Positions 4,136 through 25,719 of a stretch of DNA of 35,985 bases are shown here, piece after piece. Made by a program: the position numbers and the translations under genes. How positions within the stretch are numbered: position 1 is the stretch's first letter; the number at the start of each line of letters is the position of its first letter. The notes beneath the pieces were generated by a model, which worked only from the letters and a program-made list of their open reading frames with translations, made no database searches and was not told where the DNA came from. Source of the stretch: Archangiaceae bacterium (GTDB lineage: Bacteria > Myxococcota > Myxococcia > Myxococcales > Myxococcaceae); contig JAYVCD010000382.1 in assembly GCA_043750125.1 (NCBI GenBank), forward strand, positions 1 through 35,985. Reading direction: 5' to 3'.

Positions 4136-4861
4136 CTACTCGGACGGAAGGGCAAACGGAATCTTGAAAATATATTCGACTTCGATCGGCTTCCCGTCGA
4201 GCAGCGCGGGGGTGTAGCGCCTTCGAACCAGCGCCTCGAGCACGGTGCGTTCGAGAAAGGGCAACGTCTTGAGGACCCGGCATTCCTTCACCTGCCCTTC
4301 GACCGTTACCACGCACTTCACCAGCATCGTCCCTTGAATTTCGCGGTCGATCGCCTGCTGCGAGTACTCGGGGTCAGGGCCCGAGAGTTTACGGGGGGGC
4401 GTCATCTTGTCGTTGAAGGCCACTCGGGGCTGCACCTGCCCACCCAACACGGTGCCCGTCCCACCGACCACCCCGCCGACCTGCCCACCGACGACTCCCC
4501 CCACCACGCCGCCTTCCACTCCACCTTCGACTCCGTTGTCTTCGGGTTCGTCGGCAGCGGGCTCTTCTTTGGGCGTCTCTTTGGGAATCTCTTTCGGCGG
4601 GATGATGACGTTCTTCTGCGTCTCGCGCTTGACCGTGTGGGTCTCGGTCTTGTGCGAAGCCGGAGGAGGAGGCGGTGGCGGAGGGGGCGGAGGCGGCGCC
4701 TTCACGAACACCACCGCCACCTGGTCTTTCTCGACCGTCTTCTTCAGCTCGGTCAGCCGCCAGACCACCAGCAACACCGCCGCATGAACCAACACAGACA
4801 GCGCGACACCTGCGCGCCAGCGCGTCGGGACCTGTTCGCGATGGAGAACCGCATTAAACAT
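4136..4861 (-). CDS. tonB: Energy transducer TonB
   Basis: TM helix with SVLVH (SxxxH), poly-Pro linker, GVEGGVEGGVVGG repeat, and TonB_C domain (PEYSQQAIDREIQG..YTPALLDGKPI). Confidence 0.92.
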   Translation of the reverse strand: MFNAVLHREQVPTRWRAGVALSVLVHAAVLLVVWRLTELKKTVEKDQVAVVFVKAPPPPPPPPPPPPASHKTETHTVKRETQKNVIIPPKEIPKETPKEEPAADEPEDNGVEGGVEGGVVGGVVGGQVGGVVGGTGTVLGGQVQPRVAFNDKMTPPRKLSGPDPEYSQQAIDREIQGTMLVKCVVTVEGQVKECRVLKTLPFLERTVLEALVRRRYTPALLDGKPIEVEYIFKIPFALPSE

Positions 4862-4897
4862 CCACGACCCTCGAGCTGCGCAAAGAGACTGTCTTGG

Positions 4898-6502
4898 CTA
4901 GCGGTGCACGCCAATCAAGACAACTGCGTACACGGCATTCTTCCCGAAAGCGGGATGCACACCCTGGGCGACACCCACCCCGACCCGCTGACCCTTCCCC
5001 GTCACTGCAGATTCGTCGGCAATGGTCAGTGGATCCAACCTGACTCCGGACAGAACGTTGACCGACAGAAACGTCTTGTAGAGCGGGGTGAGGAACGCAT
5101 TGCTTTTCTCATTGCTCAAAGTGCCGCCCGACGCGGCCAGCGCAGCGGCATATTGGGTGGCAGCGGCCTCGAGCGAAGGGTCCTTCGCAAACGCCGGCAG
5201 GTGAGCGGCCAGACGCTTGTCCACAATGCGTTGGCTCAGGTCGCGCTGAACGGCGACGGGGTCCAGAGCGGTCAGCTGTCGGATGAAGAGCTCAACCACA
5301 AACACGCTCGAACGTTCGCCGGGGTCCTTCCCTTGAACCACCCCGATGCCGACATGGGTGACTTCAGGATTCATGAAGTTCGCCCTCAAAGGAGGACTCA
5401 TCGAAAATTCTCGCTGAGCGTCCTCGGTGGTCAGCGCCTGTCCCGGGTTCACCAGAACCAGCGGAGACATCAGCTCGGCTTTCTGCAGCAGCGGCAGCGG
5501 GTCCAGAGGGGTGGTGACGCCGCCCTTGAGCGAATCGTCGCGCAGACCTTCGGCAACGGTCCGAGCCACTGCTGCCAGCGCCTCTTCCCACTGAAGCGGG
5601 GCCAGACCCACCGCGACGCGTTCTGCGTTGATTTGCTCGAGCACTTTCTTTCCGTGCTCAGCAAGCTGGGCCGGCCACTGACCTGCCACCGGCAAAGCCA
5701 GCGCGAGCGGGACGGGCGCACCGCACTGCACCGGGAAACCCAGCACGGTGCGGTTTTGACCGTCCTGGTCGCTTCGAACCTCGACCTGAATTCGCCCCGG
5801 CTTGTCGCCGCAGTGCAGGTCGGCGTGAAATTCCCCACCGGGCGCGATCGGCGATTGCTCGAGGCGACCTTGAGCATCTGAAACCAGAACCTGGCCTGTC
5901 CCCTTCGACAGCACGCGACCCTTCAGCGGCGCTACCGCGGCCAGTGCCAGATGTTGGGGAACGGGGGCAAACTCGGTCAGCACTTCCTGCATGAACAGCA
6001 CGACCTTCGTCGACTTCTTGCCCAGCCGAAGGGTGGCCACTCCAAAACGGGGCTGAGTCGCCTTCTTCGCGAAGGCTCCCAAAACCTCGTTCAACAACGG
6101 AGCCATCTCGGCGAGCTCTTCGGTCGGCAAGTTCAGGATGACCGCCCGCGGCTTTGGAGGCGAGGGCAACCCGAAATGCCAGGCGACAAAGTCGACGACG
6201 TTCGCAGACAAGGTCTCAGGCTTTTCCCAACCGAGCAGCGATTCCGCTGCCGCACAAAGCTGACCGTCTGCAACCACCGGCAGCGCCCCAGCGGGACGCT
6301 GCTCGGCGAGATCATTGAGGAGCAGGCGAATCAGCCCCGGAGAGCGACATTCAAACACCGGGTTGGGCCCAAACATCTCTGAGGGGGCCCGTTCCGGGGT
6401 GAATGAATCAGAGCTGATTTTCCCAGGCGAACCCTGGCTCGCTTTGAGCTGTGCACAGCCTGCAACCAGCAGCAAAGTCAGACCCAACCCCAGCGTCTTC
6501 AT
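4898..6502 (-). CDS. Lipoprotein with multiple degenerate CAP (SCP-like) domains
   Basis: Start ATG 6502 (MKTLGLGLTLLLVAG-C lipobox, AGGA RBS). CAP motifs INAERVAVGLAPLQWEEALAAVAR and SPPLRANFMNPEVTHVGIGVV. A further CAP-like unit sits at the C-terminus. Confidence 0.75.
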   Translation of the reverse strand: MKTLGLGLTLLLVAGCAQLKASQGSPGKISSDSFTPERAPSEMFGPNPVFECRSPGLIRLLLNDLAEQRPAGALPVVADGQLCAAAESLLGWEKPETLSANVVDFVAWHFGLPSPPKPRAVILNLPTEELAEMAPLLNEVLGAFAKKATQPRFGVATLRLGKKSTKVVLFMQEVLTEFAPVPQHLALAAVAPLKGRVLSKGTGQVLVSDAQGRLEQSPIAPGGEFHADLHCGDKPGRIQVEVRSDQDGQNRTVLGFPVQCGAPVPLALALPVAGQWPAQLAEHGKKVLEQINAERVAVGLAPLQWEEALAAVARTVAEGLRDDSLKGGVTTPLDPLPLLQKAELMSPLVLVNPGQALTTEDAQREFSMSPPLRANFMNPEVTHVGIGVVQGKDPGERSSVFVVELFIRQLTALDPVAVQRDLSQRIVDKRLAAHLPAFAKDPSLEAAATQYAAALAASGGTLSNEKSNAFLTPLYKTFLSVNVLSGVRLDPLTIADESAVTGKGQRVGVGVAQGVHPAFGKNAVYAVVLIGVHR

Positions 6503-6515
6503 TGCCTTGTCCTGC

Positions 6516-7580
6516 CTAGCGGGACGAACGCCGCCGCAGCCAGAGGGCCAGACCGCTGAGCAGCAGGGGCAATGCCGCGAGCCCCTCGCCACCGACGGCC
6601 GAACACGAGCTGGCATTGGCAGGACCCTTCACGAGGCTGGTGGTTGCGGGTGAAAGGTTGTCGCCGGCACGGATGCCCGGGTTCCCGCCGTACTCAATGT
6701 TGTAATTGAAGACCACCGCCGACTGGATGATGGATTCCTTGCCGGTTTTCGCAGTGCCACCGTCCGGAATGACAGCCCCGCCCGTCAGCTCGAGGACTTT
6801 CTCCGACGCTGTGAAGGTGATCGTCTTGCCGACGGGCAACACCGTCGACAGCACGCACGCTCCGTCCATCCACGGAGTGCAGTCGCCCGCGCCACTGACG
6901 AACTCCAGACCCGCGCCCGGGCTGGTATCGAGGTTCAGACTGTCGGCCGGTACGGCACAGGGACCATTGTTGGTCACGGTGCCCTGGTAGGTGGCGGTGG
7001 CTCCGGGAAGGAGCAGGTCCGTCGGCTGACCGCCATCGCTCAGTGGCGTGGCCGGCCCGGAAGCCGTGCCCGTGACGTCGGCGAGGGGAACCGTCACGTC
7101 GGCCAGCGTCGACGTGTTGTTGGCCGGGTTGGGATCCGTCTCGGTCGCGGAAACAGTGGCCGCCAGAGAAAGGTTGGTGGGGCAAACCGCCGGCAGAACG
7201 TCCGGGGCCGGCCAGCTCAGCTTGAAGGTGAACTTGGCATTGGCACCACTGGCGAGGCCGTCGCGAATGGTGCAGGGAAGGCCGCCACCGTCGGGGTTGT
7301 CACAGCGCGGACGGCCTCCGTCGGGCGCATCGGGGTCACGAACGAACTTGGTCCCGGTCGGGAGCACCGCGTTCACCTGCACGTTGCTGGCAGTGCCGGG
7401 GCCCGTGTTGGTCACCGTCACTCCGAACAGACCGGAGCCTCCGATGGACAACTGAGGACTGGCGCCGCCATCGAATGCACCCACCCTCACCGACAGATCA
7501 GCCACCTGAGCGGTGACAGGCATTGCGTAGAACACGCACAGTGATGCCAGAATTGTCGCTGCCCGCTGTACTGGAAACAT
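6516..7580 (-). CDS. Surface protein with DUF11-like Ig domains and a MYXO-CTERM-type sorting signal
   Basis: ATG 7580 with GAGGAG RBS and a signal peptide. ADLSV..VTVTNTGPGTASNVQV..ETDPNPANNTS, with a second unit VTNNGP. The tail SSCSAVGGEGLAALPLLLSGLALWLRRRSSR has Cys, TM helix and basic end. Confidence 0.8.
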   Translation of the reverse strand: MFPVQRAATILASLCVFYAMPVTAQVADLSVRVGAFDGGASPQLSIGGSGLFGVTVTNTGPGTASNVQVNAVLPTGTKFVRDPDAPDGGRPRCDNPDGGGLPCTIRDGLASGANAKFTFKLSWPAPDVLPAVCPTNLSLAATVSATETDPNPANNTSTLADVTVPLADVTGTASGPATPLSDGGQPTDLLLPGATATYQGTVTNNGPCAVPADSLNLDTSPGAGLEFVSGAGDCTPWMDGACVLSTVLPVGKTITFTASEKVLELTGGAVIPDGGTAKTGKESIIQSAVVFNYNIEYGGNPGIRAGDNLSPATTSLVKGPANASSCSAVGGEGLAALPLLLSGLALWLRRRSSR

Positions 7581-7620
7581 GTGTGGTGCTCCTCTCAAGA
7601 ATTTCCGCAACGAAGTGGGC

Positions 7621-10600
7621 TTAGAAAGCATGTGACATCCGGACGTACAGGAAGCGACCACTGATGTCGTAACCACCGGCCGGGTCGGTGTTCGCCTGGA
7701 AGGCGTTGCCGATGAACGGAGGGGTCTGGTCGAAGATGTTGTTCATTCCGACCATCAGAACCGTCTTGCCGATGCCCGTCTCGAGCCGGTAGCTGACGAA
7801 AACGTCCGACGCGAAGTAGGGGGCAACCTGACGCTGGTAGGTGCTGTCCTGGTAGCAAAGACCGCCACCCGAGAACGAGCCGCCACCGCCTGGATCGCCG
7901 CATTCCTTGAACGCGCCGATGTAGTGGCCAGAGACGCCAATGCCCAACCCGCCCAGGTTCCAGTTCACCGCGCCCAGCCACTTCACGTGGGGGTAGGTCC
8001 CGCCGACGCCAGCGCCGTTGAGGTCCCAGTTGCCTGCGCCGCGAATCAGCTGCGCGTTGTCGCCGGTGCCGAGAATCACGTTGTTCTCTTTGAGCCAGGT
8101 GACCGTCGCTGCGAGGTTGAATTCGCCTGCGGGGGTGGTGACCCCGTAACGGGCGGCGAAGTCGATGCCGTTGGTGAACTGGGAGCCCGCGTTGAGGTTG
8201 AAGTCGTCGATGCGGGTGATGATTTGCGTCCCCGGATCGCGGGTGATCTGCCCGCAGTAGTCCTTGTTCGGCTCCCCGGCGGTCGGGTAGCAGCCGGCAA
8301 GAATCGTGTTCCCGCCCAGGGCCTGAATCGCGTTCGAAATCGAGATTTGGTAGTAGTCGACCGTCAGCGACAGGCGCTTGAGCGCGCTGACCCCGAACAG
8401 AACGCCCGGCTCGAGGACCACGCCACCGGTGATGGTGACGGCGGTCTCAGGGGTGAGCGTGGGGTTGCCACCGACCTTCGCCTTGAGCTGGGTCGACACG
8501 TCGCCGTTGTCCTTCGCAGCGCCACAGTTGGCAGGAGACGGACCATTCACGCCCGAGCACGGGTCGGCAATGTTCTCAAAGCTGTCCACCTGGCCGGTAA
8601 AGAGGTCAGAGATGGACGGAGCGCGGAAGGCGGTCGAATACGTGCCACGAACGCTGAGACCTTGAATCGGGCGGTAGATCCCGCCGATCTTCCCGGTCAC
8701 GCCGCTGCCGAACGTATTGTAGTTGAAGTACCGCAGTGCGCCGGTGACCTCAAGCAGGTCGAAGGCTTTGACATCGCTCACGATCGGAATGCTGATTTCC
8801 GCGTACGCCTCGTTCGAATAGAAGTGACCGGCGGTCGGGTTCTGGTTGTTGCCCGAGCTCTCGCCTGACGCCTGAATCGGGTCGGGAGTCGATTGACCGG
8901 CCTGGAACCGGTACTCGTAACCGAGGGCCAGACCGACCGGGCGAGCCGCAAACAACTTGAACAATTCGCCGCTGGTGTTGGCCTGAACCGAGGTCAACGC
9001 GTTCATCACCTTCTGAATCCCGGTGAAGGTCAGGCCGCCGACCTGATCCGACGCAATCGACCCGGCTCCATGGAAGAGGTCCAGGGGCACGCAGCCCTCA
9101 ATCTCGGCACCGGGAGCCCCACAGTGAGCGACGCCGGCCGCATCTCGGAAGCTCGGCCCGACCGCGTTGGCGATCTTCGTCTTGCGAAGCGAACCCGCGC
9201 TCTCGTTGGTGCCCTGGAAGCGTGCGTAGTTCAACGACAGATCCCAGAACCAGCCCTTCAGCGGGCCAGCGCCTTCGGGAAGCGAACCGTCGAGGCCCGC
9301 AACCAGGCGGTAGTTGTTGAGGTCCTGCTTGAAGCTACGAGGCCCGAACTCGAGCAGACGACGGCGCACGTAGACGTCTTTGCCGAACGGATTGTAGATG
9401 TTGTCTTTGGAGGTGAGGATGTCTGAACCACCCGGGTCGAGAACCAGGGGTTCAGGGGCCAACTGCTGGTCAGAATTTCGCTGAACGAATGCAGCCTCGA
9501 AGTAGGCACGAGCGCTGTTTCCGAGCTTCACGTCGCCGGTCGCGAAGAGCGAGAAGCGCTTCTGCGGCGTCGTGAGGTAGTTCACGTCCTGGTAGTTGTA
9601 CCCGTCGCCTATTGGCGCAAGAGCGGAGCCCTTGAACGGTCGCCAGCCCAACGGAGCGTCGGGGTCGCGAATGAAAGAGCCGGCCGTTTTGTTGTTGGTG
9701 ACCAGGTCGTTGTAGAGCGAGGTGGCCGCGGGATCGCGCACGCCTCTCTTCAGGCCGAGAATTCGACCGGCTGGAATCGTGCTGCTGCCGGAAGGCTTGA
9801 ATCCGACGCCGCCCGGGGACGCGTCGTAGAACACCTGCGGGGAGGCGTACCTTCGGTTGCCGGCCAGAATCGGATAGGCCTGAAAATAACCGGTCGAGAA
9901 GAGGATGCTGCCGCGGTCACCGGACGTGCCGGCCGTGCCGTCGACGCTGTACTGGGTGCCGTCGCCGTGGGTGGTCGAGCCTGCAAAGACGTTCAGCTCG
10001 CCGCCTTCAAAGCGCTTCTTGGTGATGATGTTGATCACGCCTGCGATGGCGTCTGAGCCGTAGACCGCTGAAGCTCCGTCTTTCAAAACTTCAATTCGCT
10101 CGATCGCGCTGGCAGGAATCGAGTTCACGTCGACCGAGTCGTCAGCGCCCAGACCTCCGGGCACCCAGCGTCGGCCGTTGACCAGCACCAGGGTGCGGCT
10201 TGCCCCCAGGCCACGGAGGTCAACACGCGTCGAACCATCGCCGCCGTTGTTGACCGAGGTGTTGGTCGCGTTGCCCTGCTCAGGCAACGTCTGGAGGAAG
10301 TCGCCCACCGAGACGCGACCGCTCTGGCGCATCTGCTCGCGGCCGATCAGGGTGATCGGCGCCGAGGAGGTGAGGTCCTTTCGACGAATTCGTGATCCGG
10401 TGACGGTAATCGTTTCTTCCGCGCTTCGTTTCTTCTTGGTGACGTTTTCCTGCTCATCCGGAAGGGGCGCTGTATCTGCGCTGGGCGGAGTCAGAACCGG
10501 CTCTGCGGCCTGGCTCGGTGCGATCGGAGCGTCGGCTGGAGGCGCTGGATCAGTCGCCGCGGGTTCCTGAGCCAGACCCGTTCCTGCGAAGAGAAGTTGT

Positions 10601-10686
10601 CCAATCAACAGTGCGGAGGACCACGCAGCGCGCTTGTTTGTCATGAATTTCCAGTTGCCCTGTGTTGTTTCGTTTTCGGACGTCAC
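7621..10686 (-). CDS. TonB-dependent outer-membrane receptor
   Basis: TonB box ETITVTGSRI, plug (VDLRGLGASRTLVLVNGRR, IERIEVLKDGASAVYGSDAIAGVINIIT), amphipathic barrel and C-terminal Phe. Alternative start is ATG 10644. Confidence 0.95.
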   Translation of the reverse strand: MTSENETTQGNWKFMTNKRAAWSSALLIGQLLFAGTGLAQEPAATDPAPPADAPIAPSQAAEPVLTPPSADTAPLPDEQENVTKKKRSAEETITVTGSRIRRKDLTSSAPITLIGREQMRQSGRVSVGDFLQTLPEQGNATNTSVNNGGDGSTRVDLRGLGASRTLVLVNGRRWVPGGLGADDSVDVNSIPASAIERIEVLKDGASAVYGSDAIAGVINIITKKRFEGGELNVFAGSTTHGDGTQYSVDGTAGTSGDRGSILFSTGYFQAYPILAGNRRYASPQVFYDASPGGVGFKPSGSSTIPAGRILGLKRGVRDPAATSLYNDLVTNNKTAGSFIRDPDAPLGWRPFKGSALAPIGDGYNYQDVNYLTTPQKRFSLFATGDVKLGNSARAYFEAAFVQRNSDQQLAPEPLVLDPGGSDILTSKDNIYNPFGKDVYVRRRLLEFGPRSFKQDLNNYRLVAGLDGSLPEGAGPLKGWFWDLSLNYARFQGTNESAGSLRKTKIANAVGPSFRDAAGVAHCGAPGAEIEGCVPLDLFHGAGSIASDQVGGLTFTGIQKVMNALTSVQANTSGELFKLFAARPVGLALGYEYRFQAGQSTPDPIQASGESSGNNQNPTAGHFYSNEAYAEISIPIVSDVKAFDLLEVTGALRYFNYNTFGSGVTGKIGGIYRPIQGLSVRGTYSTAFRAPSISDLFTGQVDSFENIADPCSGVNGPSPANCGAAKDNGDVSTQLKAKVGGNPTLTPETAVTITGGVVLEPGVLFGVSALKRLSLTVDYYQISISNAIQALGGNTILAGCYPTAGEPNKDYCGQITRDPGTQIITRIDDFNLNAGSQFTNGIDFAARYGVTTPAGEFNLAATVTWLKENNVILGTGDNAQLIRGAGNWDLNGAGVGGTYPHVKWLGAVNWNLGGLGIGVSGHYIGAFKECGDPGGGGSFSGGGLCYQDSTYQRQVAPYFASDVFVSYRLETGIGKTVLMVGMNNIFDQTPPFIGNAFQANTDPAGGYDISGRFLYVRMSHAF

Positions 10687-16112: not shown

Positions 16113-17182
16113 GCGCCCCGGAGGTCAGCCAGGCGGCCCTTGGTCCCCGGCAGGCTTCCCGGGGCAGACTTCGACAGGGTGTACTGCACCGTGTCGTTGA
16201 GGGTCTGAAACAGATCGCGCGGCTGATAGCCCAGCTCGCGCTCGGCCTTCGAGCTGTCGAGCCAGAAATAATGCTCGCCGATTTCGACCTCGTGGGGGTC
16301 GAGCTTGGCGGTGGTGCCTCGCCATTTCGCGAAGGCCTCGAGCGCGTAGGCCCCGAGCACGTTGGCCGCTTTAGGCAGCCGCAGCTTCGGAGCGGGAACT
16401 CCGGTCAGCCGCTCGAGCCGCCCGAAAAAATCGTCCATCGTCAGGTTCACGCCGATCAGGTGGCGACCGTAAAGCTCTCCCCGGGTGAGCGCTGCGAGCG
16501 TCGCGTCGGCGACATCGCGGGCGTCGGCGATGCTGATGCCTCCGTTGGGCATCGCGGGAATGTCGCGCTGCAGGAACTTCACCACCATCCACGTCGAGCT
16601 CAGCCTATCGTCCCCGGGCCCCATCAACAGCGAAGGGTTGAGCACGACTGCAGGGATCTGGTGCTTGCGGCAGTACTCGAGCGTCAGCTTCTCTTCGAAG
16701 ATTTTCGACAGGTAGTACGGCCAGCGCCCAACGACCTCAATCGGGTAGTCGTCGTCCTCGGTGCCGATGCGCTCGGTCTTCGAGACGGCGATGGCTCCCG
16801 AGGTGGACATCAAAATGATCCGCGGTCGGGTCCCCAGCGCTTGAACGTCTCTGAGCAACGCGCGGGTGCAGTCGACGTGCAGCTCGTACATCTTGCGGCC
16901 GTCTTCGGGGCGAAAGCTGACCCGCCCGGCGAGGTGGATGATCGCCTCGACCCCGTCGATTGCCTTGCGCACGGCCTCGCGGTCTTTGAGGTCGCCTTGA
17001 ATGAATTCGGCGATCGGCGCCCCTTCGGCTTTTCCGAAGCCCGCTTTGGGAGCGAGCGGAGTCCACACCGAAGCGGCGGGGCGGTTGCGGCCCAGGACGC
17101 GGACCTGGTGACCTTGCGCGAGCAGCCGGGGAACCAGGTGACTGCCGAGAAAACCGGTGCCGCCGGTGACGAGGATCTTCAT
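16109..17182 (-). CDS. elbE: NAD-dependent epimerase/dehydratase (extended SDR), ElbE-like by position
   Basis: TGGTGFLG, HLAG and YYLSK (YxxxK). ATGA overlap with elbD. The symbol rests on recalled synteny with the M. xanthus elb cluster. Confidence 0.7.
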   Translation of the reverse strand: MKILVTGGTGFLGSHLVPRLLAQGHQVRVLGRNRPAASVWTPLAPKAGFGKAEGAPIAEFIQGDLKDREAVRKAIDGVEAIIHLAGRVSFRPEDGRKMYELHVDCTRALLRDVQALGTRPRIILMSTSGAIAVSKTERIGTEDDDYPIEVVGRWPYYLSKIFEEKLTLEYCRKHQIPAVVLNPSLLMGPGDDRLSSTWMVVKFLQRDIPAMPNGGISIADARDVADATLAALTRGELYGRHLIGVNLTMDDFFGRLERLTGVPAPKLRLPKAANVLGAYALEAFAKWRGTTAKLDPHEVEIGEHYFWLDSSKAERELGYQPRDLFQTLNDTVQYTLSKSAPGSLPGTKGRLADLRGA

Positions 17183-20100
17183 GACGACTTCCTCGTCGGG
17201 TCATTGGAGGTGCGCGCCACGGCTTCGGCGACGAGCTTGCCGGGCGAATAGACCTTCCCGGCGGCCAGGGCCCGAATCGACTCTTCGGCCAGCTTGGTGA
17301 CGCTGCGATAGCTCTCGCTGCGCGCCATGCCCTTCGTTCTGCGCCGCATCTCGGACAACAACAGCGGAGGCCCGATGCGAACTTTCAAGTCGGTCTGCTT
17401 GGGGAACAGCCCGCCCTTGGGCAGGGCTTCGAACGTGCCCCCCAGGTACATCGGCAGAATGTCGACCTCGTAGCTGAGCGCGAGGTAGCCCAAGGTGGGG
17501 AAGAATTCCTGAATCTCACCGGTCGGCGAGCGGGTCCCTTCAGGAAAGATGAGCAGGTTGAAGCCCTGGTTGAGCGCTTCGCCCGCCATGCGCAGCGATT
17601 CGCGCAGCGAGCCCTGGCGTTCCATCGGAATGAGGTTGGTGAAGTTCTCGAAGTAGGCGCGCTTGAGCGGGGTGTTGAAGAAGTAGTCGCGGGCCGCGAG
17701 CGCGGTCAGCCGTTCGCCTTGCGAGCCGAGCACCACCTTGACCAGGCCCATGTCGAGATGACTCGAGTGGTTGGCGATGACGAGGAAGTTCCGGTTCTGG
17801 GGAATGAACGATTTGCCGGTGGTCTGAACGTCGAAGATGCCGCCGTAGAGCGCGCGCTGCCCGGCGGACAACAACGCCTTGCCCAGGCGCGCGATCGGCT
17901 CGGGCATCGAGATCTCGAGATCGGTCGACTTCTGGGTGAGCTCGCGGGTGACGTCTTTGGCGCGGGTCTCAGTTGCGGGCAGTTTGCCGGACGCCATGAT
18001 CACCCGGCGCAGGTCTTCGACGGTGTTGATCTTGGTCAGATCTCCGACCGCGCTGGTCGCCACTCCGGCCTGCTCGAGGGCGACCGACAGCTCGGTGAGC
18101 ATCAGCGAGTCGAAGCCCAGGTCGGCGGTCAGGCGCGAGTCCGACCGGATGTCGGTCGCGGGCCGCTGCAGCACTTCGGCGAGAATCGGAATCAGCCAGT
18201 CGGTGTTGACGGCGGAATCCTTGGCGGCCGAGCGGGCTTTTTCCCCACTGTGGGCTGCGCGTTCGAGGCGCTTCAGCTCTTCGACCACCTGCTTGCGCTT
18301 GACCTTGCGGGTCGAGGTGCGCGGCAGCTCGGCGTCCCACAGCCGCAGCAGCTTCACCCGGCGGTAGAACGGCATCTCGGCGGACACCAGCCGGAAGTGC
18401 TCTTCGAGCTCTCTGCGCACTTCTTCCCGCGGCCGCTCGAAGTAGTCGGGCACGCAGAGGCAGGCGACTTTTTCCGCGCCCGCTTCATCGGCGAACCCGA
18501 CGATCGACAGCTCTTTGACGTGCTTGTGCTTCCCGTAGAGCTCCTCGAGCTCGTCGGGGTAAACGTTCTTCCCGTTGGCGTCGATGATGACGTCCTTCTG
18601 CCGACCCGCGAGGTAGAGGCGGCCTTCGTCGTCGATGCGTCCGAGGTCTCCGGTGTGCAGCCAGCCGTCTTTCAAGACGACGTCGGTGCTCTCGCGATCC
18701 TCGAAGTAGCCGGCCATCACGTTGGGGCCGCGGGCGATCACCTCGCCGATTCCTTCTCCGTCGGGGCTGGAGATCTTCAGCTCGATTCCCGGCAGCGCGC
18801 GCCCGACGGTTCCGGGCAACCGCTTGTTGCTGTTCTCGGTCACGGTGAGCACCGGAGCCGATTCGGTCAGCCCGTACCCTTCGGTGAGGCTGAAGCCGAG
18901 CGCGTGAAACGCTTTGTGGACGTCATCGGGAAGCGCCGAGCCGCCCGAGACGAGGTACTTGATGTTCCCCCCGAACTTCCGGTGCACCGGCCAGAACAGC
19001 AGCTTGCCGAGGTTCAGGCTCGAGCGATTGCGCAGCTCGCCGTTGATCGCCATCAGCCCCTTCATCGCTTCTTCGATGAAGCGAGGCTTGCTGGCGAGCT
19101 CCTGGGTCATCTTCCGGTGGAACAGTTGCCACAGCGCGGGCACGCCGATCATCCCGGTGATCCGCCCGGTCTCGAGCACGTCGCCGATGCGGTCGGTCGT
19201 GAGCTCGTCGATGTAGGAAATTTCGGCGCCGCGAGAGAACGGAGTGAGGAAGCCGGCCGAGAACTCGAACGTGTGGTGAAGCGGAAGCACCGACAGCACC
19301 CCGTCGCCGACTCCCATTTCGAAGCTGCCAGCGAGCTTGGAAATCAGAGAGCTGAAGTTCCGGTGCGTCAGCATCACCCCCTTGGGATTCCCGGTGGTGC
19401 CGCTGGTGAAGATGAGGGAAGCGACATCGTCCGGGCCGGCGCTCTTCTTCACCGGGCCGATGCCGTCGGGCTGCGCGTCGTCCCCGGCCATCGCCTGGGC
19501 CAGGGAATGAACCTGAATCGAGAGGGTGGCCTCGGCCAGCTGCCGGTGCAGTGCGGGCAGCTCTTCGGCGGCCTTCTCGGACAGCAGGCAGACGGAAGCG
19601 CGGCAGCGGCGCGCGACGTTGACGACTTCGGCTTCCGACAGCTCGGGGTCGATCGGAACGACGGTGGCCCCGGCGCGCAGAATTCCGAAGAACGCGATGC
19701 CCCACTCGGGCCGGTTCTCAGAGACGAGCATCACCTTGTCGCCCGGCTTGACGCCCGAGCGAATGAGGAAGCTGCCGACGCGCGCGGCGTAGCGGTGAAC
19801 TTCGCCGTAGGTAAAGCGGGTCTGCTTGTCGCCTTCGAACATCCGGAACGCGACCCGCTGCCGCCAGGCGTGAACCGATGCTTCGAACATCTCGAGCAGG
19901 TCTCGGTGCGAGGCGATCACCCGGCGCTTTTCGGTCTCTTCCTCGAGGCCGGGGAAGACCCACTTCTCGAGTCCAGGCATGTGGACGTTGAGGAAGTAGT
20001 CGCGCCAGTCGATGTCTTCGGGGTTCCAGGGAATCTTCGCCCGGTCGTGCGCGGGCATGTCGGCGTACAGCGACCGGGTGTTGTCGCAGCGGAAGAGGAA

Positions 20101-21591
20101 CCGGTTTTCCCAGAGGAAGGGCAAGAACAGGTCGACGATCATCTTCACCCCGCCCGCCTGCTCGCCGACATCGTCGAGCTTCTGGCTGGCGTGGGTGAGC
20201 ATCGCGGTCAACTTCGGAGCGCCCCAGGTCGGCTTGAGCTCTTCAATCTTCGACTTCAGCCACTTGGTGCCTTCGGTGAACAGCGGCGCGCTGCGGGCGT
20301 TGAAAGCGCTCTTGCTGACCGCCTGGGGCTCGATTCGCGCCAGCAATTCGTTGAGGTAGCCGTTGCCGGTCTTCTTGGTGCGGTAATACTTGCGGCGGTA
20401 GAGGCCGACCAGCTCGACGCTGCGGGGGGCCATGAACGGGTTGGTGTCGCCCGAAGCCTGGGCATAGACGCGGCGCTCGGACGTTCGCAGCTGCTGGGCG
20501 GTGATCGCGATCAACGAGCCGGCGACCATGTCGACCGGGATCATGTCGAGCACCGCCTTGTCGCTGGCCGGCAGTGCGCGCTGACCTTTGAGGCAGGCAA
20601 AGCAGATGGGGGCCGACGTGGTGAAGCCCTCGTTCCACCCGGGGAACGGGTAGTGGAGCGCGCTCTCGACGATCGACGGTCGGACGATCGCGTAGCGCAG
20701 GCCCGGGGTCGAGGCGATGACCTGTTCGCCGAGCGCCTTGGTGTACGTGTACGTGTTGGGCCAGCCCCAGTGCTTGGCCCGTTCCATTCCGGCCTCGGTG
20801 AGCTTGAGCGTGGTCCACAGCTTGCGTTCGCGACCGACGGCCAGGCGCAGCGTCTTTTCGTCGTTGAAGTCGCGGCCTTCTTCTTTGAGCCGGGTGAGGG
20901 CCTTCTCGCGAAAGATCGAGCCCAGCGCCTTGTCGTCAGACTGCTCGCGCAGCCGGGCGACGATTTTTCCGCAGTCCTTGAGTTCTTGCTCGAGAGAAAA
21001 GTCGCGGCCCCCGAGCTCTTCTTTCCGGGGGAAGTAGCCGAGGACTTCTTCGTCTTCGAAGATCAGCCCCGAGCGATTGCCGGCCACGAACGAGGTCGAC
21101 ATGTGGACCAACGGCACGTCGTAGTGAAGGCAGGCGTCGACGAGGTGCTTGAGCCCGTGGGTGTTGACGTTGAGGCCGACCTCGAGCGAGGGGTTGAAGC
21201 TCACCAGTCCCGCGCAGTTGATGACTACGTCCAGCTCGCCTTTCAACGCTCGGGCGGGGACTTCTTCCATTCCCATCCACGGGTCGGTGATGTCGCCGTC
21301 GAGAATGGTGCACTTGTTCTTCAGCCAGGTGACCGCGCCTTCTTCCCCGTACTTCTCGCGAATGGGCAAGAAGGGCTCGCTGGGAACGACCTTGTCGTAG
21401 AAGCGGACTTCGGCGTTCTTGCTGCTGCCTTTGCGGACGAGGACGTAGACCTTCTTCAGCTGCTCGCCATAGCGGTGCAGCAGCATCGACAAAGACACCT
21501 TGCCGACGAAGCCCGTTGCGCCTGCGAAGAGCACGCGTTTGCCAGTGAGAATTGCGGTGACGTCGAGGGGGCCCAGCGAAGTTACAGCCAT
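17179..21591 (-). CDS. elbD: ElbD-type ether-lipid multienzyme: fatty acyl reductase + adenylation + ACP + acyltransferase
   Basis: Reductase (GATGFVGK, PNTYTYTK, RPSIV, DMIPVD), A domain (FTSGTTGNPKG, GYGLTE, TGDLG), carrier (LGFDSL) and PlsC (NHSSHLD, FPEGTRS). ATG at 21591. Confidence 0.88.
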   Translation of the reverse strand: MAVTSLGPLDVTAILTGKRVLFAGATGFVGKVSLSMLLHRYGEQLKKVYVLVRKGSSKNAEVRFYDKVVPSEPFLPIREKYGEEGAVTWLKNKCTILDGDITDPWMGMEEVPARALKGELDVVINCAGLVSFNPSLEVGLNVNTHGLKHLVDACLHYDVPLVHMSTSFVAGNRSGLIFEDEEVLGYFPRKEELGGRDFSLEQELKDCGKIVARLREQSDDKALGSIFREKALTRLKEEGRDFNDEKTLRLAVGRERKLWTTLKLTEAGMERAKHWGWPNTYTYTKALGEQVIASTPGLRYAIVRPSIVESALHYPFPGWNEGFTTSAPICFACLKGQRALPASDKAVLDMIPVDMVAGSLIAITAQQLRTSERRVYAQASGDTNPFMAPRSVELVGLYRRKYYRTKKTGNGYLNELLARIEPQAVSKSAFNARSAPLFTEGTKWLKSKIEELKPTWGAPKLTAMLTHASQKLDDVGEQAGGVKMIVDLFLPFLWENRFLFRCDNTRSLYADMPAHDRAKIPWNPEDIDWRDYFLNVHMPGLEKWVFPGLEEETEKRRVIASHRDLLEMFEASVHAWRQRVAFRMFEGDKQTRFTYGEVHRYAARVGSFLIRSGVKPGDKVMLVSENRPEWGIAFFGILRAGATVVPIDPELSEAEVVNVARRCRASVCLLSEKAAEELPALHRQLAEATLSIQVHSLAQAMAGDDAQPDGIGPVKKSAGPDDVASLIFTSGTTGNPKGVMLTHRNFSSLISKLAGSFEMGVGDGVLSVLPLHHTFEFSAGFLTPFSRGAEISYIDELTTDRIGDVLETGRITGMIGVPALWQLFHRKMTQELASKPRFIEEAMKGLMAINGELRNRSSLNLGKLLFWPVHRKFGGNIKYLVSGGSALPDDVHKAFHALGFSLTEGYGLTESAPVLTVTENSNKRLPGTVGRALPGIELKISSPDGEGIGEVIARGPNVMAGYFEDRESTDVVLKDGWLHTGDLGRIDDEGRLYLAGRQKDVIIDANGKNVYPDELEELYGKHKHVKELSIVGFADEAGAEKVACLCVPDYFERPREEVRRELEEHFRLVSAEMPFYRRVKLLRLWDAELPRTSTRKVKRKQVVEELKRLERAAHSGEKARSAAKDSAVNTDWLIPILAEVLQRPATDIRSDSRLTADLGFDSLMLTELSVALEQAGVATSAVGDLTKINTVEDLRRVIMASGKLPATETRAKDVTRELTQKSTDLEISMPEPIARLGKALLSAGQRALYGGIFDVQTTGKSFIPQNRNFLVIANHSSHLDMGLVKVVLGSQGERLTALAARDYFFNTPLKRAYFENFTNLIPMERQGSLRESLRMAGEALNQGFNLLIFPEGTRSPTGEIQEFFPTLGYLALSYEVDILPMYLGGTFEALPKGGLFPKQTDLKVRIGPPLLLSEMRRRTKGMARSESYRSVTKLAEESIRALAAGKVYSPGKLVAEAVARTSNDPTRKSS

Positions 21592-21721
21592 GGCCGATGC
21601 TCTAGCCGCCACAGCGCGGGAAATCCAGTTGGGGACAAGACAGCTTTGACCCCGCGGAATTTGACAGGGCGCGGCGGCGGTCGTTTTGTGGGGGCAATGA
21701 ATTCGAACCCTGCCCGGCGCG

Positions 21722-23272
21722 ATGGCCCCTAAAGACGAGCTGCAGGCGGGTCAGCTGGGCAAATACCGGATCCTCACCCGGCTGTCGGTGGGGGGAATGG
21801 CCGAGATCTTCCTCGCCTTCGGCCCGGGGCCCAGCGGAGAGCAGCGGCTGGTCACGGTGAAGCGGATCTTGCCCGAGCTGCGCGAGCGCGAAGAGTTCGT
21901 GCACATGTTCCTCGACGAAGCGCGAATCAGCGCGTCGCTGGCGCACCAGAACATCGCGCAGGTCTACGAGCTGGGGCACGAGCGCGACGAGCTGTTCATC
22001 GCGATGGAGTTCATCGCCGGCCAAAGCCTGGCGTCGATCTTGAGGCGGTGCAAACGACTGCGGCGGCCGATGCCGGTGGGCTTCACCGCGATGGTGGGGC
22101 GGGACCTGTGCCTGGCGCTCGACTGCGCGCACAACTTCGTTCAGCGCTCGGGGGAGGTGGCTCCGATCATTCACCGCGACGTTTCGCCCACCAACGTGAT
22201 GGTCACCTACGACGGGCAGGTGAAGGTGATCGACTTCGGGGTGGCGAAGGCGGCGGGCAGCCTGTCGCGCACCGCCTCGGGGAACATCAAGGGCAGCCGG
22301 GGCTACATGTCGCCCGAGCAGGCGCGGGGGGCTCCGCTGGATCCCCGGTCGGACATTTTCGCCGCGGGCATCGTGCTGCACGAGCTGCTCACCGGGCGCC
22401 CGCTGTTCCTGCGCGATTCTGAATTGCTGACCTTTCGCGGAGTGCTGCGCGATGACATTCCCACCGCGATTTCGATCAACCCCGGCGTGCCGCGCCCGCT
22501 GTCGGACGTGATTGCGATCGCGTTGAACCGCAGCGTGGGAACGCGGTTTCCGAACGCCCGGGAAATGTCGCGCGCGATTTCGGCCGCCATTCCCGCGCTG
22601 ATTTCGACTGCCGAAGACGCCGCGGCCTTCATGCGCGAGCTGTTCGCTGACGAGCTGCTGCAGACCGAAGCGCTGCTGTCGACCCAGCGGGGCAGCGTCG
22701 CGCTGCTCAAAGACTCGACCCGCGATCTCGGCGTTCCCCGCCATGGAGGGACGAACGTCTACGGGCCGCTGCCCACCGGGGTGATTCGACTCGAGGAAGA
22801 AGAGGAAAAGCGGGCCGTGCCCGAAGGGCCCGAGCGGGCGGTGGAAGGGGCGACCGTGCTGTCGGTCGACGACTCGGAGATCAGCCGGGACTTCATCGAG
22901 GCGCACCTCGAGAGCTCGGGGTTTCCGGTGCTGCACTGCGGCTCGGCGAAAGAAGCGCTGGTGCTGATTGAAGAGCGCCTGCCTGACTTGATTCTGCTCG
23001 ACGTGGTGATGCCGGGGATCAACGGCTTCGAGCTGTGCCGAATGTTGCGCGAGCGCTGCACCCAACGGCCTTTTCTTCCGATTCTGTTCCTCACTTCGGT
23101 CAGCTCGTTCGAGCAGCGGCTGGAAGGCCTGGCCGCGGGGGGCGACGACTTCATCGTCAAGCCGTATCACCCGCCCGAGCTGATCGGCCTGGTGCGGGCC
23201 CACCTGCGACGAGCGGCGTTTCTCGAAAAGCAGCGGTCACGCGCGGCGCAGGCGAAGTCGAAGCCGTCGTAA
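21722..23272 (+). CDS. Ser/Thr protein kinase fused to a C-terminal receiver domain
   Basis: Kinase motifs GGMAEIF, VTVKR, HRDVSPTN, DFG, YMSPE. Receiver motifs VDDS, LILLDVVMP, FLTS, FIVKP. No TM segment. Confidence 0.92.
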   Translation: MAPKDELQAGQLGKYRILTRLSVGGMAEIFLAFGPGPSGEQRLVTVKRILPELREREEFVHMFLDEARISASLAHQNIAQVYELGHERDELFIAMEFIAGQSLASILRRCKRLRRPMPVGFTAMVGRDLCLALDCAHNFVQRSGEVAPIIHRDVSPTNVMVTYDGQVKVIDFGVAKAAGSLSRTASGNIKGSRGYMSPEQARGAPLDPRSDIFAAGIVLHELLTGRPLFLRDSELLTFRGVLRDDIPTAISINPGVPRPLSDVIAIALNRSVGTRFPNAREMSRAISAAIPALISTAEDAAAFMRELFADELLQTEALLSTQRGSVALLKDSTRDLGVPRHGGTNVYGPLPTGVIRLEEEEEKRAVPEGPERAVEGATVLSVDDSEISRDFIEAHLESSGFPVLHCGSAKEALVLIEERLPDLILLDVVMPGINGFELCRMLRERCTQRPFLPILFLTSVSSFEQRLEGLAAGGDDFIVKPYHPPELIGLVRAHLRRAAFLEKQRSRAAQAKSKPS

Positions 23273-23275
23273 AGC

Positions 23276-23806
23276 TCAGGGATACGAGACGAACACGTCG
23301 ACGGTGAATGACTGACCGGGCGGAGCAATGTGCATCGTCGGCGGCGCGTGGGCGCGGATGCATTGCGCCACTTCGGCAGAGGCGTCGCGGGCTTCCTGCA
23401 CCCCGCGCCCGACTTCGTTTCCCTCTGCGTCGATCACGAATTGGTAGGTGAGGCTGACCGCGGCAGACCCGGAGGCCGGAAAGCACAACGCCACCCACTG
23501 GGGCCGCAGTCGTTCCAATTCCGCGCCGAGCGCCGCCTCGACTTTCGAGCGCGCGGCCCGAAGCCTGGGTTCATCTGACGCCGGCGCGGGAAGAGCTGCG
23601 GGTGCCGGAACCCGGGCGAGCGCGACGGGAGGAAGCACCCGCGGAGCAAAGCCCACCGGAATCGGGCGCGGCGCCGCAACGACCGGCTCGGAAGGAACGG
23701 ACGGGACAATGGGAATCTGTCCGAGCCGATGCACCCCCAGGCTCACCCCCACCCCGCCGGCGAAGGTCGCAACCCCCAGCCCAATCCACAGCGGGCGCAG
23801 GCTCAC
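23276..23806 (-). CDS. Membrane-anchored protein with Pro-rich linker and TonB-C/AgmX-PglI-like two-Cys domain (paralogue B)
   Basis: GTG 23806 overlaps the upstream stop (GTGA). TM segment LWIGLGVATFAGGVGVSLGV. C-domain VALC..IDAEGNEVGRG..VAQC..PP..I..PG..YP. Confidence 0.65.
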   Translation of the reverse strand: MSLRPLWIGLGVATFAGGVGVSLGVHRLGQIPIVPSVPSEPVVAAPRPIPVGFAPRVLPPVALARVPAPAALPAPASDEPRLRAARSKVEAALGAELERLRPQWVALCFPASGSAAVSLTYQFVIDAEGNEVGRGVQEARDASAEVAQCIRAHAPPTMHIAPPGQSFTVDVFVSYP

Positions 23807-24210
23807 GGAAGGACCAATTGGACCTGCAATGAAACCGGAGCTCCCGGTGCGGGAATTCGCAGCTCGGGAGGAAAGCGTCGGGTCAGGCAGGTGCCGACCT
23901 GGTTGAACGGCGCGCTGTGGTCTTCCGACAGCCCGCGGCCCACTTCGTGTCCCGTCGCATCGAACGCCATGGAAAAAATGAAGGCCAGAGGAGGAAGGCC
24001 CGCATCGAAGGACCAGCAGGCTGCGACCATGTCCGCGTGCCGGACCTGCAGCGCGGCGAGGGCGTTTGCTTCGGTCTGGCTCAGGGGCTGGGCCTGGATT
24101 TTCGCCGGCACAGGCTCGGCCCGGTGACCGCGCAGGCCAAAATAAAGGCCGAGCGAGATCATCGCGCAGCCGATCACAATCGAGAAGAACAACGCGGTGC
24201 TTTGTCTCAC
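23803..24210 (-). CDS. Membrane-anchored protein with TonB-C/AgmX-PglI-like two-Cys domain (paralogue A)
   Basis: TM segment ALFFSIVIGCAMISLGLYFGL. C-domain VAAC..FDATGHEVGRG..VGTC..PP..I..PG..LP, which aligns with the neighbouring gene. Confidence 0.7.
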   Translation of the reverse strand: MRQSTALFFSIVIGCAMISLGLYFGLRGHRAEPVPAKIQAQPLSQTEANALAALQVRHADMVAACWSFDAGLPPLAFIFSMAFDATGHEVGRGLSEDHSAPFNQVGTCLTRRFPPELRIPAPGAPVSLQVQLVLP

Positions 24211-24228
24211 AGCCGAAGACCGGGCTCC

Positions 24229-25719
24229 CTAGTTCATCAAGATCGCCGAGGTATACCCGAACTCGTTGTTGTCCCAGTTCGCGTTGGACACGGTCGCGCA
24301 CAGCCCGAACAGGTATGAGCCGGCGGCGAGGCCGGTGAACACCGCGTTCAACCCCATCGGGGTGCGGGTGTTCTGAAGGCAGGTCTGACCAAACGAACCC
24401 GCTCCCAGCGCGACCGGTGCGGCGACTCCCAATTGCCGGCAGACGTAGAGGTTGAGCGCACTGGCTCCTCCGGCGACGCTGCTGCCCATCGCGCGGCTGG
24501 CCGTGACGAAGACCGTCTGAGTGGTGCTGGTGACGCTCAGGGTCACCGTCGGGCCGATGAACGTGGGGCTCAGCGAAATCGGGAGGCTCGAGCTGGACCC
24601 GAGCCCCGAGGCAAAGACCGCGGCCACCACGCCCTGCGGCCCTTGCGCTCCGGTCGCCCCAGTGGCACCGGTCGCCCCAGTTGGGCCCATCGTTCCGGTG
24701 GGGCCCGCGACTCCAGTGGCGCCGATGGGCCCGGTGGCCCCCGTCGTCCCATTGGGTCCAATCGGCCCGATGGGGCCCGCGGCTCCGGTCGTGCCAGTGG
24801 CGCCGGTCGACCCATTGGGCCCATTCGGCCCGACGGGCCCAGCGGCTCCGGTCGCGCCTGTGTTTCCGGTGGTCCCTGCCGGGCCGGTCACACCCGCCGG
24901 GCCCACGGTTCCGGTTGGCCCTTGAGGACCTGTCGGGCCAGCGGCTCCGATCGCGCCATCAGGTCCTGCGGGTCCGGCGGCGCCCGTCGCTCCGATAGAT
25001 CCGGTCGGACCTTGAGGACCTGCTGACCCCGCGGGCCCCACTGCTCCATCGGCGCCCGCAGGTCCAGTCGCGCCCGCAGAGCCCGGAATTCCGGTTGGAC
25101 CCTGAGGACCCGCCGGTCCAGCCGGGCCGAGCGCTCCATTGGTCCCGGCAGGTCCAGTCGCACCGGCAGAACCGACGGCTCCGGTCGGACCTTGAGGACC
25201 CGACGGCCCGGCCGGCCCGGTTCCATCTGCTCCGGCAGGTCCCTGCGGTCCTGCGACCCCGGTAATGCCCGTCGGCCCACTGGCTCCCATCGCGCCCTGC
25301 GGTCCCGTGGCCCCGGGGGCGCCGGGATCTCCCGCGAGTCCCTGCGCGCCCGCGAGTCCTTGCGGCCCCAGGGCACCGTTGCAGGCGTAGGTGATGCCGC
25401 CGTCTACATCGAACTTCGTGCCCCCGCGGGCGCAATTCAAATCTCCCACCGGCAACGCCGTCGCGATCACCGGCCTTGGGGACCCCGCTGGGCCTGCAGG
25501 GCCCGTCGCACCGACGGGGCCCGCCATTCCGGGCGCTCCGGCCGTTCCGGCTGTTCCGACCATTCCGGGCATTCCCGCGGCGCCTTTCTCTCCCGCGGGA
25601 CCTTGCGGACCGAGCGCACCCACCGCCCCTTGTGGGCCTTCGGGACCTGCGGCGCCAGGCGAGGAACAACCCGTTACCAACACAACGGCCGCAGAAAACA
25701 GAGTTGCAGTCAGTCTCAA
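24229..25719 (-). CDS. Collagen-like (Gly-X-Y) lipoprotein with C-terminal globular domain
   Basis: TTG start and lipobox LVTG-C. About 20 triplets, then a two-Cys insert (NCARGG..TYACNG), ~83 further triplets and an ~130-aa beta-rich C-domain. Confidence 0.88.
24900..25225 (-). repeat. Degenerate 90-bp (30-aa) coding tandem repeat, ~4 units
   Basis: c(t/c)tgaggacc recurs at 24921, 25011, 25101 and 25191, giving GPQGPTG every 30 aa. An adjacent 63-bp duplication has ggctccggtc at 24781 and 24844. Boundaries are approximate. Confidence 0.85.

Follow-up and report, generated by a model that had tools for sequence, protein, structure and literature searches.

A collagen-stalk lipoprotein gene and small membrane partners with a TonB-like C-terminal domain: a proposed two-gene envelope module of Myxococcales

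Introduction

On the minus strand of a 35,985-nucleotide stretch of DNA from an Archangiaceae bacterium (contig JAYVCD010000382.1 of assembly GCA_043750125.1; the whole stretch is called the window below), three genes follow one another closely. The first, here called G1, encodes a lipoprotein with a long collagen-like stalk and a globular head, and the other two, G2 and G3, encode small membrane proteins that share a C-terminal domain, which we name the EVGRG domain after its most conserved motif. We read the three genes as the local form, with two copies of the partner gene, of a two-gene envelope module that is conserved in Myxococcales, and structure prediction suggests that the EVGRG domain of the small proteins binds the head of the lipoprotein. 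What could a membrane protein of this kind do for a bacterial collagen? Bacterial collagens have been studied as adhesins and biomaterials, and we know of no account of how a long triple helix is put together and brought to its place in a diderm cell. Here, we go through the genes, their distribution and the predicted contact, and weigh what the partnership may be for.

Layout of the three genes

The genes run in the order G1-G2-G3 (Table 1). G2 starts 18 bp past the stop codon of G1, and the GTG start of G3 overlaps the stop codon of G2 as GTGA. The initial annotation of this DNA, made from its letters and a list of open reading frames (ORFs), had described just such a tight three-gene unit, and the sequence features that it listed are all present on the minus strand at the positions it gave. 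It had further noticed that the second paralogue is hidden inside a mis-started frame, which proves right: G3 is the end portion of a 341-aa ORF (23276-24301) that crosses G2 in another frame, and the short start is favoured because homologues have the same N-terminal transmembrane helix. The start of G2 calls for the same attention. Its database version (P0002, 119 aa) begins further inside, at an ATG halfway through the transmembrane helix, and homologues favour the GTG at 24210; the form of the helix obtained in this way is common to the homologues P0003, P0004 and P0012. The GC content of the module is unremarkable relative to the window.

Table 1. Features of the three-gene module, with their positions in the window
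Feature	Position	Strand	Basis
G1, collagen-stalk lipoprotein, 496 aa, TTG start	24229-25719	-	ORF list, Pfam Collagen, GGGGG ribosome-binding site upstream
G1 signal peptide and lipobox V-T-G-C (Cys18)	25666-25719	-	read from sequence
G1 collagen run 1, residues 22-81, 20 triplets, ~17 nm	25477-25656	-	script triplet count
G1 hinge, residues 82-114 (33 aa), non-collagen insert with Cys96 and Cys113	25378-25476	-	sequence reading
G1 collagen runs 2 and 3, residues 115-168 (18 triplets) and 171-365 (65 triplets), ~71 nm	24625-25377	-	script triplet count
G1 head, residues 367-496 (130 aa), predicted eight-stranded TNF/C1q-like jelly roll, two invariant Cys	24232-24621	-	AF2 model, Foldseek, alignment
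G2, short-linker partner, 135 aa, GTG start	23803-24210	-	ORF list, homologues
G2 EVGRG motif, residues 89-93	23932-23946	-	alignment, sequence reading
G3, long-linker partner, 176 aa, GTG start	23276-23806	-	ORF list, alignment, AF2 model
G3 EVGRG motif, residues 131-135, strand beta-2, centre of predicted head interface	23402-23416	-	conservation, complex prediction

The collagen lipoprotein

The first 18 residues of G1 read as a putative signal peptide whose end fits the lipobox pattern [LVI][ASTVI][GAS]C, and a lipobox is also found in most of the collagen genes of relatives. Position +2 after the lipobox Cys is Ser, which we take not to be a typical retention residue. Behind the anchor comes the rod. 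The Pfam Collagen model (PF01391) scores 155 bits on G1 against a cut-off of 27.2 (E 4.2e-46), and a script counts 103 Gly-X-Y triplets in total, with Pro at 41 of the X positions. Runs 2 and 3 are split by a two-residue G-T break, and the hinge, which lies between runs 1 and 2, has no Pfam match even at E<=10. With a rise of 0.286 nm per residue, the rod is estimated at ~17 + 15 + 56 = 88 nm, and the initial picture of a lipoprotein with ~100 triplets, a two-Cys hinge, a globular tip and a rod of ~90 nm thus agrees with the counts. The equivalog models for the collagen-like adhesins Scl and Lcl remain below their cut-offs on G1 (NF038329 144.1 of 325 bits, NF046116 125.2 of 500, NF038330 110.1 of 400). 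At four other loci (L036, L042, L092 and L087), the collagen rod is interrupted by an insert of ~45 aa with the pattern W..Y.P.D.V.F.G..W.A, which presumably resembles the small carbohydrate-binding inserts of fibre proteins; G1 of the window has its two-Cys hinge instead.

The head belongs to no Pfam or NCBIfam family, and a word-index search with it returned one relative only, P0151. An alignment of eight rows (the window, the loci of six relatives and P0151) was given to AlphaFold2 (AF2), and the resulting model has eight strands with a predicted local distance difference test score (pLDDT) of 89.4. A Foldseek search of the Protein Data Bank (PDB) with this model finds 60 chains at E<=1e-3. 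The best of them is PLTL, a trimeric lectin similar to tumour necrosis factor (TNF), at E 1.8e-5 and a template modelling (TM) score of 0.64, and the others include the N-terminal lectin of BC2L-C, the TNF-like C-terminal domain of Pgp3, phage tail-needle knobs, baseplate proteins, TNF-family ligands, C1q domains and ExsF. Judging from this model, G1 appears to be built like BclA or C1q, with a collagen stalk and a TNF/C1q-like head at its C-terminal end. In proteins of that type the head trimerises and nucleates the triple helix, and by analogy the head of G1 is expected to do the same. At one related locus (L037 3866-5672, plus strand, genome G104), the collagen part and the TNF-like head lie in different, overlapping frames, which may come from a frameshift or from an assembly error.

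A family of small membrane proteins

G2 and G3 have the same plan, as the initial annotation had recognised: a transmembrane helix, a linker that is short in one and long in the other, and a shared domain at the C-terminal end. In G2, the helix (residues ~6-26, with a GLYFGLR motif) is followed by a linker of ~11-13 aa and the EVGRG domain at 40-135, and in G3 the helix (residues ~5-25) is followed by a Pro/Ala-rich linker at 26-78 (about 57 aa) and the domain at 79-176, which includes Cys108 and Cys149. The C-terminal domains, ~95 aa long, are 30% identical over 92 residues (BLASTP E 1e-9) and have in common the pattern VA.C ... DA.G.EVGRG ... C ... PP...I..PG ... P. The resemblance goes beyond chance, and the family is real: among 1.84 billion representatives searched with HMMER, a profile made from just these two sequences retrieves 521 proteins at E<=1e-3, of which 100 reach E<=1e-10. 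Nearly all of the 150 matches listed are 72-213 aa long and carry the domain at the extreme C-terminus; the long repeat proteins P0006 and P0022 were excluded as multi-stretch repeat matches. In an alignment of 115 members, C108, G129 and C149 are invariant and R134, G135, R140, P163, G164 and P176 nearly so (G3 numbering).

The helices are of two types. One is the GLYFGLR-like helix with a short linker, seen in 44 of 148 members and in G2; the other is an LAF..GRW-like helix that follows a positively charged N-terminus and precedes a long linker, and is nearer to that of G3. In a quick tree, whose weak forks we do not rely on, G2 clusters with P0012, P0025 and P0066 (SH-aLRT branch support 91) and G3 with P0008, P0009, P0078 and P0117 (97). 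The two genes stand in separate subclades and are therefore not recent tandem duplicates.

No family of Pfam or NCBIfam fits the G2/G3 domain at the thresholds, word-index searches with G2 and G3 returned only the query proteins themselves, and of ten members looked up, three are named, each as "hypothetical protein". Some candidate matches were set aside: those to PetL in 11 of the 115 members fall on the transmembrane helix and are spurious, the sole sequence-profile match in the PDB, a VirB10 spacer at E 0.18, was taken as low complexity, and a candidate third paralogue on contig C289 of the same genome (E 0.08) overlaps another gene in a frame that is not coding.

Fold and kinship of the EVGRG domain

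What kind of domain is it? The AF2 model of G3, made with the 115-row alignment, has a pLDDT of 83 overall and of 85-98 per ten-residue block in the domain, where it consists of a helix (79-108), a hairpin (117-125/130-138), a second helix (144-152) and a last strand (167-175). When 48,161 PDB chains were ranked with VIA-align, the places 1-13 were all taken by C-terminal domains of TolA, TonB, FusB and HasB, with Z scores of 6.7-4.1 and 71-94 aligned residues; the Z values are moderate, and the list is uniform. The best match is 4g7x_B (Z 6.7, root-mean-square deviation 3.4 A, 88 aligned). Foldseek against the PDB gives nothing at E<=1e-3 for the G3 domain, and its top rows are again C-terminal domains of TonB, TolA, HasB and FusB (E 0.08-0.6), while a structure search of the ESM Atlas points to clusters called 'Energy transducer TonB' (TM score 0.61). 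The modelled domain is a three-stranded sheet on two helices, C-terminal after a transmembrane helix and a spacer, as in the TonB_C/TolA-III fold, and the TonB-C-like character that had been attributed to it is supported to that extent by the models.

At the level of sequence the kinship is more distant. TonB_C (Pfam PF03544) has no match to G2 or G3 at E<=1, and the same model matches 12 other places in the genome; likewise NF033768, the model of the AgmX/PglI tail with a cut-off of 40 bits, has no match to G2 or G3 at E<=0.001. Among the 115 family members, 13 have a weak match to the GltJ model and 6 a weak match to NF033768 (best E 1.2e-3 for the latter). Comparison of profile with profile (hhalign) goes further. 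The EVGRG family matches the 13 AgmX/PglI tails of the same genome with a probability of 94.6% (E 6.8e-8, 86 columns, both Cys aligned), those tails match TonB_C with 92.1% (E 6.1e-7), and the EVGRG family compared directly with TonB_C (8 of the genome's matches) gives 12.8% (E 0.0022), where the controls, the EVGRG family against the head profile and the head profile against the AgmX/PglI tails, give 0.6% (E 0.11) and 0.1% (E 0.48). By profile comparison, the EVGRG domain is thus a divergent branch of the AgmX/PglI tail, which in turn is a relative of TonB_C, and the link to tails of the GltG/GltJ type drawn in the initial annotation is borne out. GltG and GltJ carry TonB-like C-terminal domains which models put on GltD, and GltG is modelled with the AglRQS motor, its TonB-like domain binding GltD (PMC11761067). 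The AgmX/PglI tail has 18 matches in the same genome, 13 of them above the cut-off, on open frames of 147-724 aa, so that this organism makes wide use of the docking domain.

Linkage to collagen genes across genomes

Are the EVGRG proteins linked to collagen genes elsewhere? In a sample of 363 genomes of the same order (which includes the 41 genomes of a first search), loci were scanned with a hidden Markov model (HMM) of the domain, another of the head, and a counter of triplets. The domain profile matches 16 of the 363 genomes including the genome of the window itself; by family, it is found in 4 of 207 genomes of f1, 10 of 92 of f7 and the one genome of f2. In a sample of 401 genomes of the phylum, the domain is confined to families of the order Myxococcales, with none in the other families searched.

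Outside the window, 18 further loci were collected from 15 genomes of 8 genera, and two of the loci are from Anaeromyxobacteraceae. At 14 of these 18, the EVGRG domain is encoded directly downstream of a collagen-like gene, so that the expectation that EVGRG homologues neighbour collagen genes holds when it is checked with profiles. At 13 loci a collagen-like ORF ends directly upstream on the same strand; at one (G156:C8), only the last 65 residues of a head are present before the contig ends (head HMM E 5.2e-14); at one in genome G154, the partner gene is cut by the contig end and a collagen lipoprotein lies directly downstream; and at three (G011:C125, G117:C186 and G266:C91) the collagen gene is absent. 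The genes around the module vary between loci. The partner gene is single at every other locus and present in two copies only in the window, and G2 and G3 stand in different subclades and are not a conserved pair; the dedicated heterodimer that had been proposed for them lacks support. In the own genome, 30 of 54,339 ORFs have a run of at least 10 G-X-Y triplets, many of them being merely Gly-rich, and head and domain occur only at the module.

The test was also done in reverse, and the link is weaker in this direction. The head profile matches 16 places in 13 genomes; at nine of these head loci the partner lies directly downstream, six lack a partner, and one is at a contig edge. The partner nearly always accompanies a collagen lipoprotein, but such lipoproteins also occur alone, and for this reason the partner is an accessory of collagen lipoproteins and not a universal requirement for them.

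The rods at these loci differ in length from 21 to 103 triplets, many relatives having 21-34 triplets, or ~18-29 nm; a rod of 88 nm is found here and in genome G150. Linker length and rod length have no visible relation (in this comparison the transmembrane calls of L015 and L045 are clearly wrong, an Ala-rich linker having been taken for the helix). Two loci show variations of the theme. At L041 (4583-5877, minus strand, genome G154), the gene after the collagen lipoprotein encodes another small transmembrane protein (a 212-aa frame) whose C-terminal domain has no EVGRG match, maybe a second type of partner. At L047 (2100-3425, plus strand, genome G196), the collagen lipoprotein linked to a partner carries a Cys-rich head of a different kind (116 aa, maybe lectin-like), and its rod contains a Cys-rich insert.

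Predicted contact between head and partner

Does the EVGRG domain touch the head? Three copies of the head were modelled together with residues 79-176 of G3, with custom alignments, the trimeric state of the head being assumed as input. The interface score ipSAE reaches 0.88, 0.84 and 0.87 (median 0.87), and the best of three controls reaches 0.00. From run to run, at least 85% of the contacts recur, and the partner has a pLDDT of 82 or more. The mark for this score was reached by 116 of 157 solved complexes and by 2 of 215 mismatched pairs, a calibration that is only roughly applicable here. In the models, the centre of the interface is formed by residues 130-140 of G3, among them the nearly invariant R134, G135 and R140; this EVGRG strand pairs with head residues 1-11 and 24-29 (G1 367-377 and 390-395); the interface also touches a second copy of the head at residues 31-36, 73-74 and 94-100. 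We know of no solved complex of a TonB-type domain with a TNF-like domain, and a memorised structure is thus an unlikely source of the score. The prediction supports binding of the EVGRG domain to the head of G1, and the dedicated physical partnership that had been suspected from gene order gains the support of this model.

Surroundings of the module in the window

The module is flanked by a kinase-receiver fusion and a CBS-domain protein. The former (21722-23272, plus strand) is a Ser/Thr protein kinase fused to a C-terminal receiver domain of response regulators, and its stop codon is 3 bp from the convergent stop codon of G3, which leaves no space for terminators between them. A promoter scan found no sigma-70-like site, and a terminator scan gave 4 terminator-like sites where 2.5 +/- 1.4 are expected. 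Among sequencing runs, the locus was listed for 4 DNA runs, all of one study, and for no RNA run. A conventional TonB cluster (4136-10686, minus strand) lies 13-19 kb from the module and contains a TonB_C protein (4136-4861, E 6.6e-15), a CAP-domain protein, a DUF11 protein and a TonB-dependent receptor (7621-10686); neither ExbB nor ExbD was seen among the scanned ORFs of the window. At 17179-21612 (minus strand), there is a 1477-aa fusion of fatty-acyl reductase (NAD_binding_4/Sterile), AMP-binding ligase, PP-binding and acyltransferase domains, whose layout, we presume, resembles that of the myxobacterial ether-lipid enzyme ElbD.

What may the partners do?

How could these parts work together? 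In the sequence of events that we favour, G1 would be exported by Sec and then lipid-modified, and its head would trimerise and zip up the ~88-nm collagen triple helix. G2 and G3 would be bitopic inner-membrane proteins, probably with the N-terminus inside and the C-terminus outside, and would present their domains, of a disulfide-type two-Cys TolA/TonB C-terminal fold, to the periplasm. There the domain may dock at the seam of two head protomers, its EVGRG beta-strand pairing with edge strands of the head. The heads could in this way be captured and clamped at the inner membrane on leaving the Sec channel, and the clamp may help or hold the nucleation of the trimer before the fibre is handed to the outer membrane. 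The linker of G2 has only ~11 residues, and its domain should therefore be held within a few nm of the inner membrane; capture or clamping there is favoured because of this nearness and because the head comes out of Sec after the rest of G1. That G2 and G3 dock on the head trimer in the periplasm, most likely to capture or clamp heads at the inner membrane, is a reading to which we give close to, though not quite, an even chance, the docking itself being counted in this estimate. The gene order and the linkage are observed and the folds and the distant homology come from comparison of models and profiles, while binding is predicted and the topology, trimeric state, timing and final location of the fibre are our suppositions.

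Several observations weigh against it. Pairing is not obligatory: apart from the three domain loci that have no collagen gene, 6 of the 15 scorable head loci have no partner within 1.5 kb downstream, and no domain match appears there even at E<=1. The heads of the partner-linked lipoproteins at L040, L041, L043-L045 and L047 are missed by the head profile (hhalign <1%), that of L042 being a distant match (83.5%), and docking specific to heads would then need a fold common to the heads that are not recognised. The binding is a prediction by a model, and the job differed from those of the calibration by its custom alignments and three head copies. The charges flanking the transmembrane helices of G2 and G3 are ambiguous, with clearly positive N-termini only in the long-linker relatives; the topology of the two proteins is putative, and so are the expression, localisation and trimerisation of the module proteins. 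The surface fibre or adhesin of the initial annotation, its export and the co-transcription of the three genes likewise gain no direct support here.

The same predicted contact would also suit a permanent tether across the envelope, in which the lipid of G1 sits in the outer membrane, the head is held by G2 and G3 from the inner membrane, and the collagen rod and the Pro/Ala spacer together form a lasting strut in the periplasm. The Ser after the lipobox Cys fits this, so do the partners, whose lack of a cytoplasmic domain is what an anchor with a purely structural role would lead one to expect, and the rods of ~18-29 nm in many relatives are close to the width of the periplasm. However, the rod of 88 nm here, with one of similar length in G150, is about three times as long as the periplasm is wide, the range of 21-103 triplets goes along with no visible adjustment of the linkers, and the 11-residue linker of G2 would force the head flat on the inner membrane; moreover, TNF-like lectin heads would usually be supposed to face outward. 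We regard such a tether as the chief rival of the clamp, unlikely though worth keeping in mind. Could the partners instead transmit energy, as the initial annotation had allowed, with a proton-driven motor of the ExbBD, TolQR or AglRQS kind coupled through G2 and G3 to export, expose or move the collagen lipoprotein? Fold and distant homology do point to TonB/TolA and to the tails of GltG and GltJ, and GltG has been modelled with the AglRQS motor and with its TonB-like domain on GltD (PMC11761067). On the other hand, the SxxxH motif, known from such transducers, is found within the N-terminal 45 residues in just 4 of 148 family members, the flanking kinase and CBS-domain genes are not motor genes of the ExbBD/TolQR kind and no ExbB or ExbD is seen in the scanned ORFs, G2 and G3 lack a cytoplasmic domain, and both TonB_C and NF033768 fall short of E<=0.001 on them. 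The claim of energisation is not upheld by these data, and a transducer of this kind seems improbable.

It might also be that there is no contact at all, the small membrane proteins being independent neighbours that are co-inherited with collagen genes and the complex prediction being a false positive. Loci with only one of the two components exist in both directions, and 2 of the 215 mismatched pairs passed the mark in a calibration unlike the present job. Yet order and strand recur in 14 of 18 loci of 8 genera while the surrounding genes differ, and the most conserved motif of the family falls in the predicted interface, and coincidence of this kind looks rather unlikely. The least probable of the explanations, to which we give hardly any weight, is a phage remnant in the chromosome, made up of a tail fibre and the chaperone for its assembly: phage fibres do have collagen repeats and TNF-like knobs, and the fold matches of the head include phage tail-needle knobs and baseplate proteins, but G1 has a lipobox, the head, G2 and G3 have no PHROG match at E<=0.01, cellular genes surround the module, the partner sits in a membrane and has a predicted TonB-type fold, and the GC content is not unusual for the window.

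Comparison with known systems

Both parts of the module have known folds, as far as the models tell. Like G2 and G3, the proteins GltG and GltJ (AgmX) and others matched by NF033768 are bitopic proteins of the inner membrane, in which a long disordered spacer in the periplasm leads to a C-terminal TonB-type domain with two Cys, and where the domain of GltG and GltJ docks on the envelope protein GltD (PMC11761067), that of G2 and G3 is predicted to dock on the head of G1. G2 and G3 are far smaller, however, lack the cytoplasmic FHA, zinc-ribbon and GYF domains, and are linked to a collagen lipoprotein instead of the gliding machine. With domain III of TolA and the C-terminal domain of TonB (PF03544/PF13103), they share the helix-hairpin-helix-strand fold, the order of transmembrane helix, spacer and domain, and partner binding by an exposed beta-strand, in G2 and G3 as predicted; in contrast, they have no sequence match to these, no SHLS motif and no adjacent motor genes, and their predicted client is a TNF-like head instead of a TonB box or the N-terminus of TolB.

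G1 for its part resembles BclA of the Bacillus exosporium, C1q and collagens VIII-X in that its collagen stalk bears, at the C-terminal end, a jelly-roll head of the TNF/C1q type, and differs from them in its N-terminal lipid anchor in a diderm envelope, in the lack of a sequence match of the head, and in having a dedicated membrane partner. The best structural matches of the head, PLTL of Photorhabdus and the N-terminal domain of BC2L-C of Burkholderia (E 1.8e-5 to 2e-4, TM score ~0.64), are trimeric sugar-binding jelly rolls that are 13-18% identical to it and have no collagen stalk. Scl1 and Scl2 of Streptococcus and Lcl of Legionella share with G1 the Gly-X-Y repeats, through which their NCBIfam models match; G1 has no LPXTG anchor, its head and its anchor are of other kinds, and its scores are far below the cut-offs. 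A search of the literature on bacterial collagen-like proteins, including myxobacteria, Anaeromyxobacter, TonB and lipoproteins, found no description of the module. The novelty lies in three things: that the two parts are paired, that the AgmX/PglI tail has a subfamily without a name, and that a TNF-like head is the predicted client.

Perspectives

What would such a module mean for these bacteria? TonB/TolA-type domains are known to dock on TonB boxes, TolB/Pal and GltD, and a TNF-like head would extend this list by a new type of target. That a domain of this type has been recruited to grip a TNF-like head, either as a collagen link between inner and outer membranes or as a dedicated assembly clamp at the inner membrane, is a tentative proposal, which we place somewhat short of an even chance; if it is true, it would give TonB-like domains a new class of clients and would make this the first bacterial collagen with a membrane-bound partner of its own. 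The module is compact, in most genomes just two genes, and the question comes down to one domain, one head and one conserved strand. Anaeromyxobacteraceae, the family of two of the loci, has cultured members, and a cultured carrier, if there is any, would let genetics and microscopy decide between a periplasmic and a surface location of the fibre.

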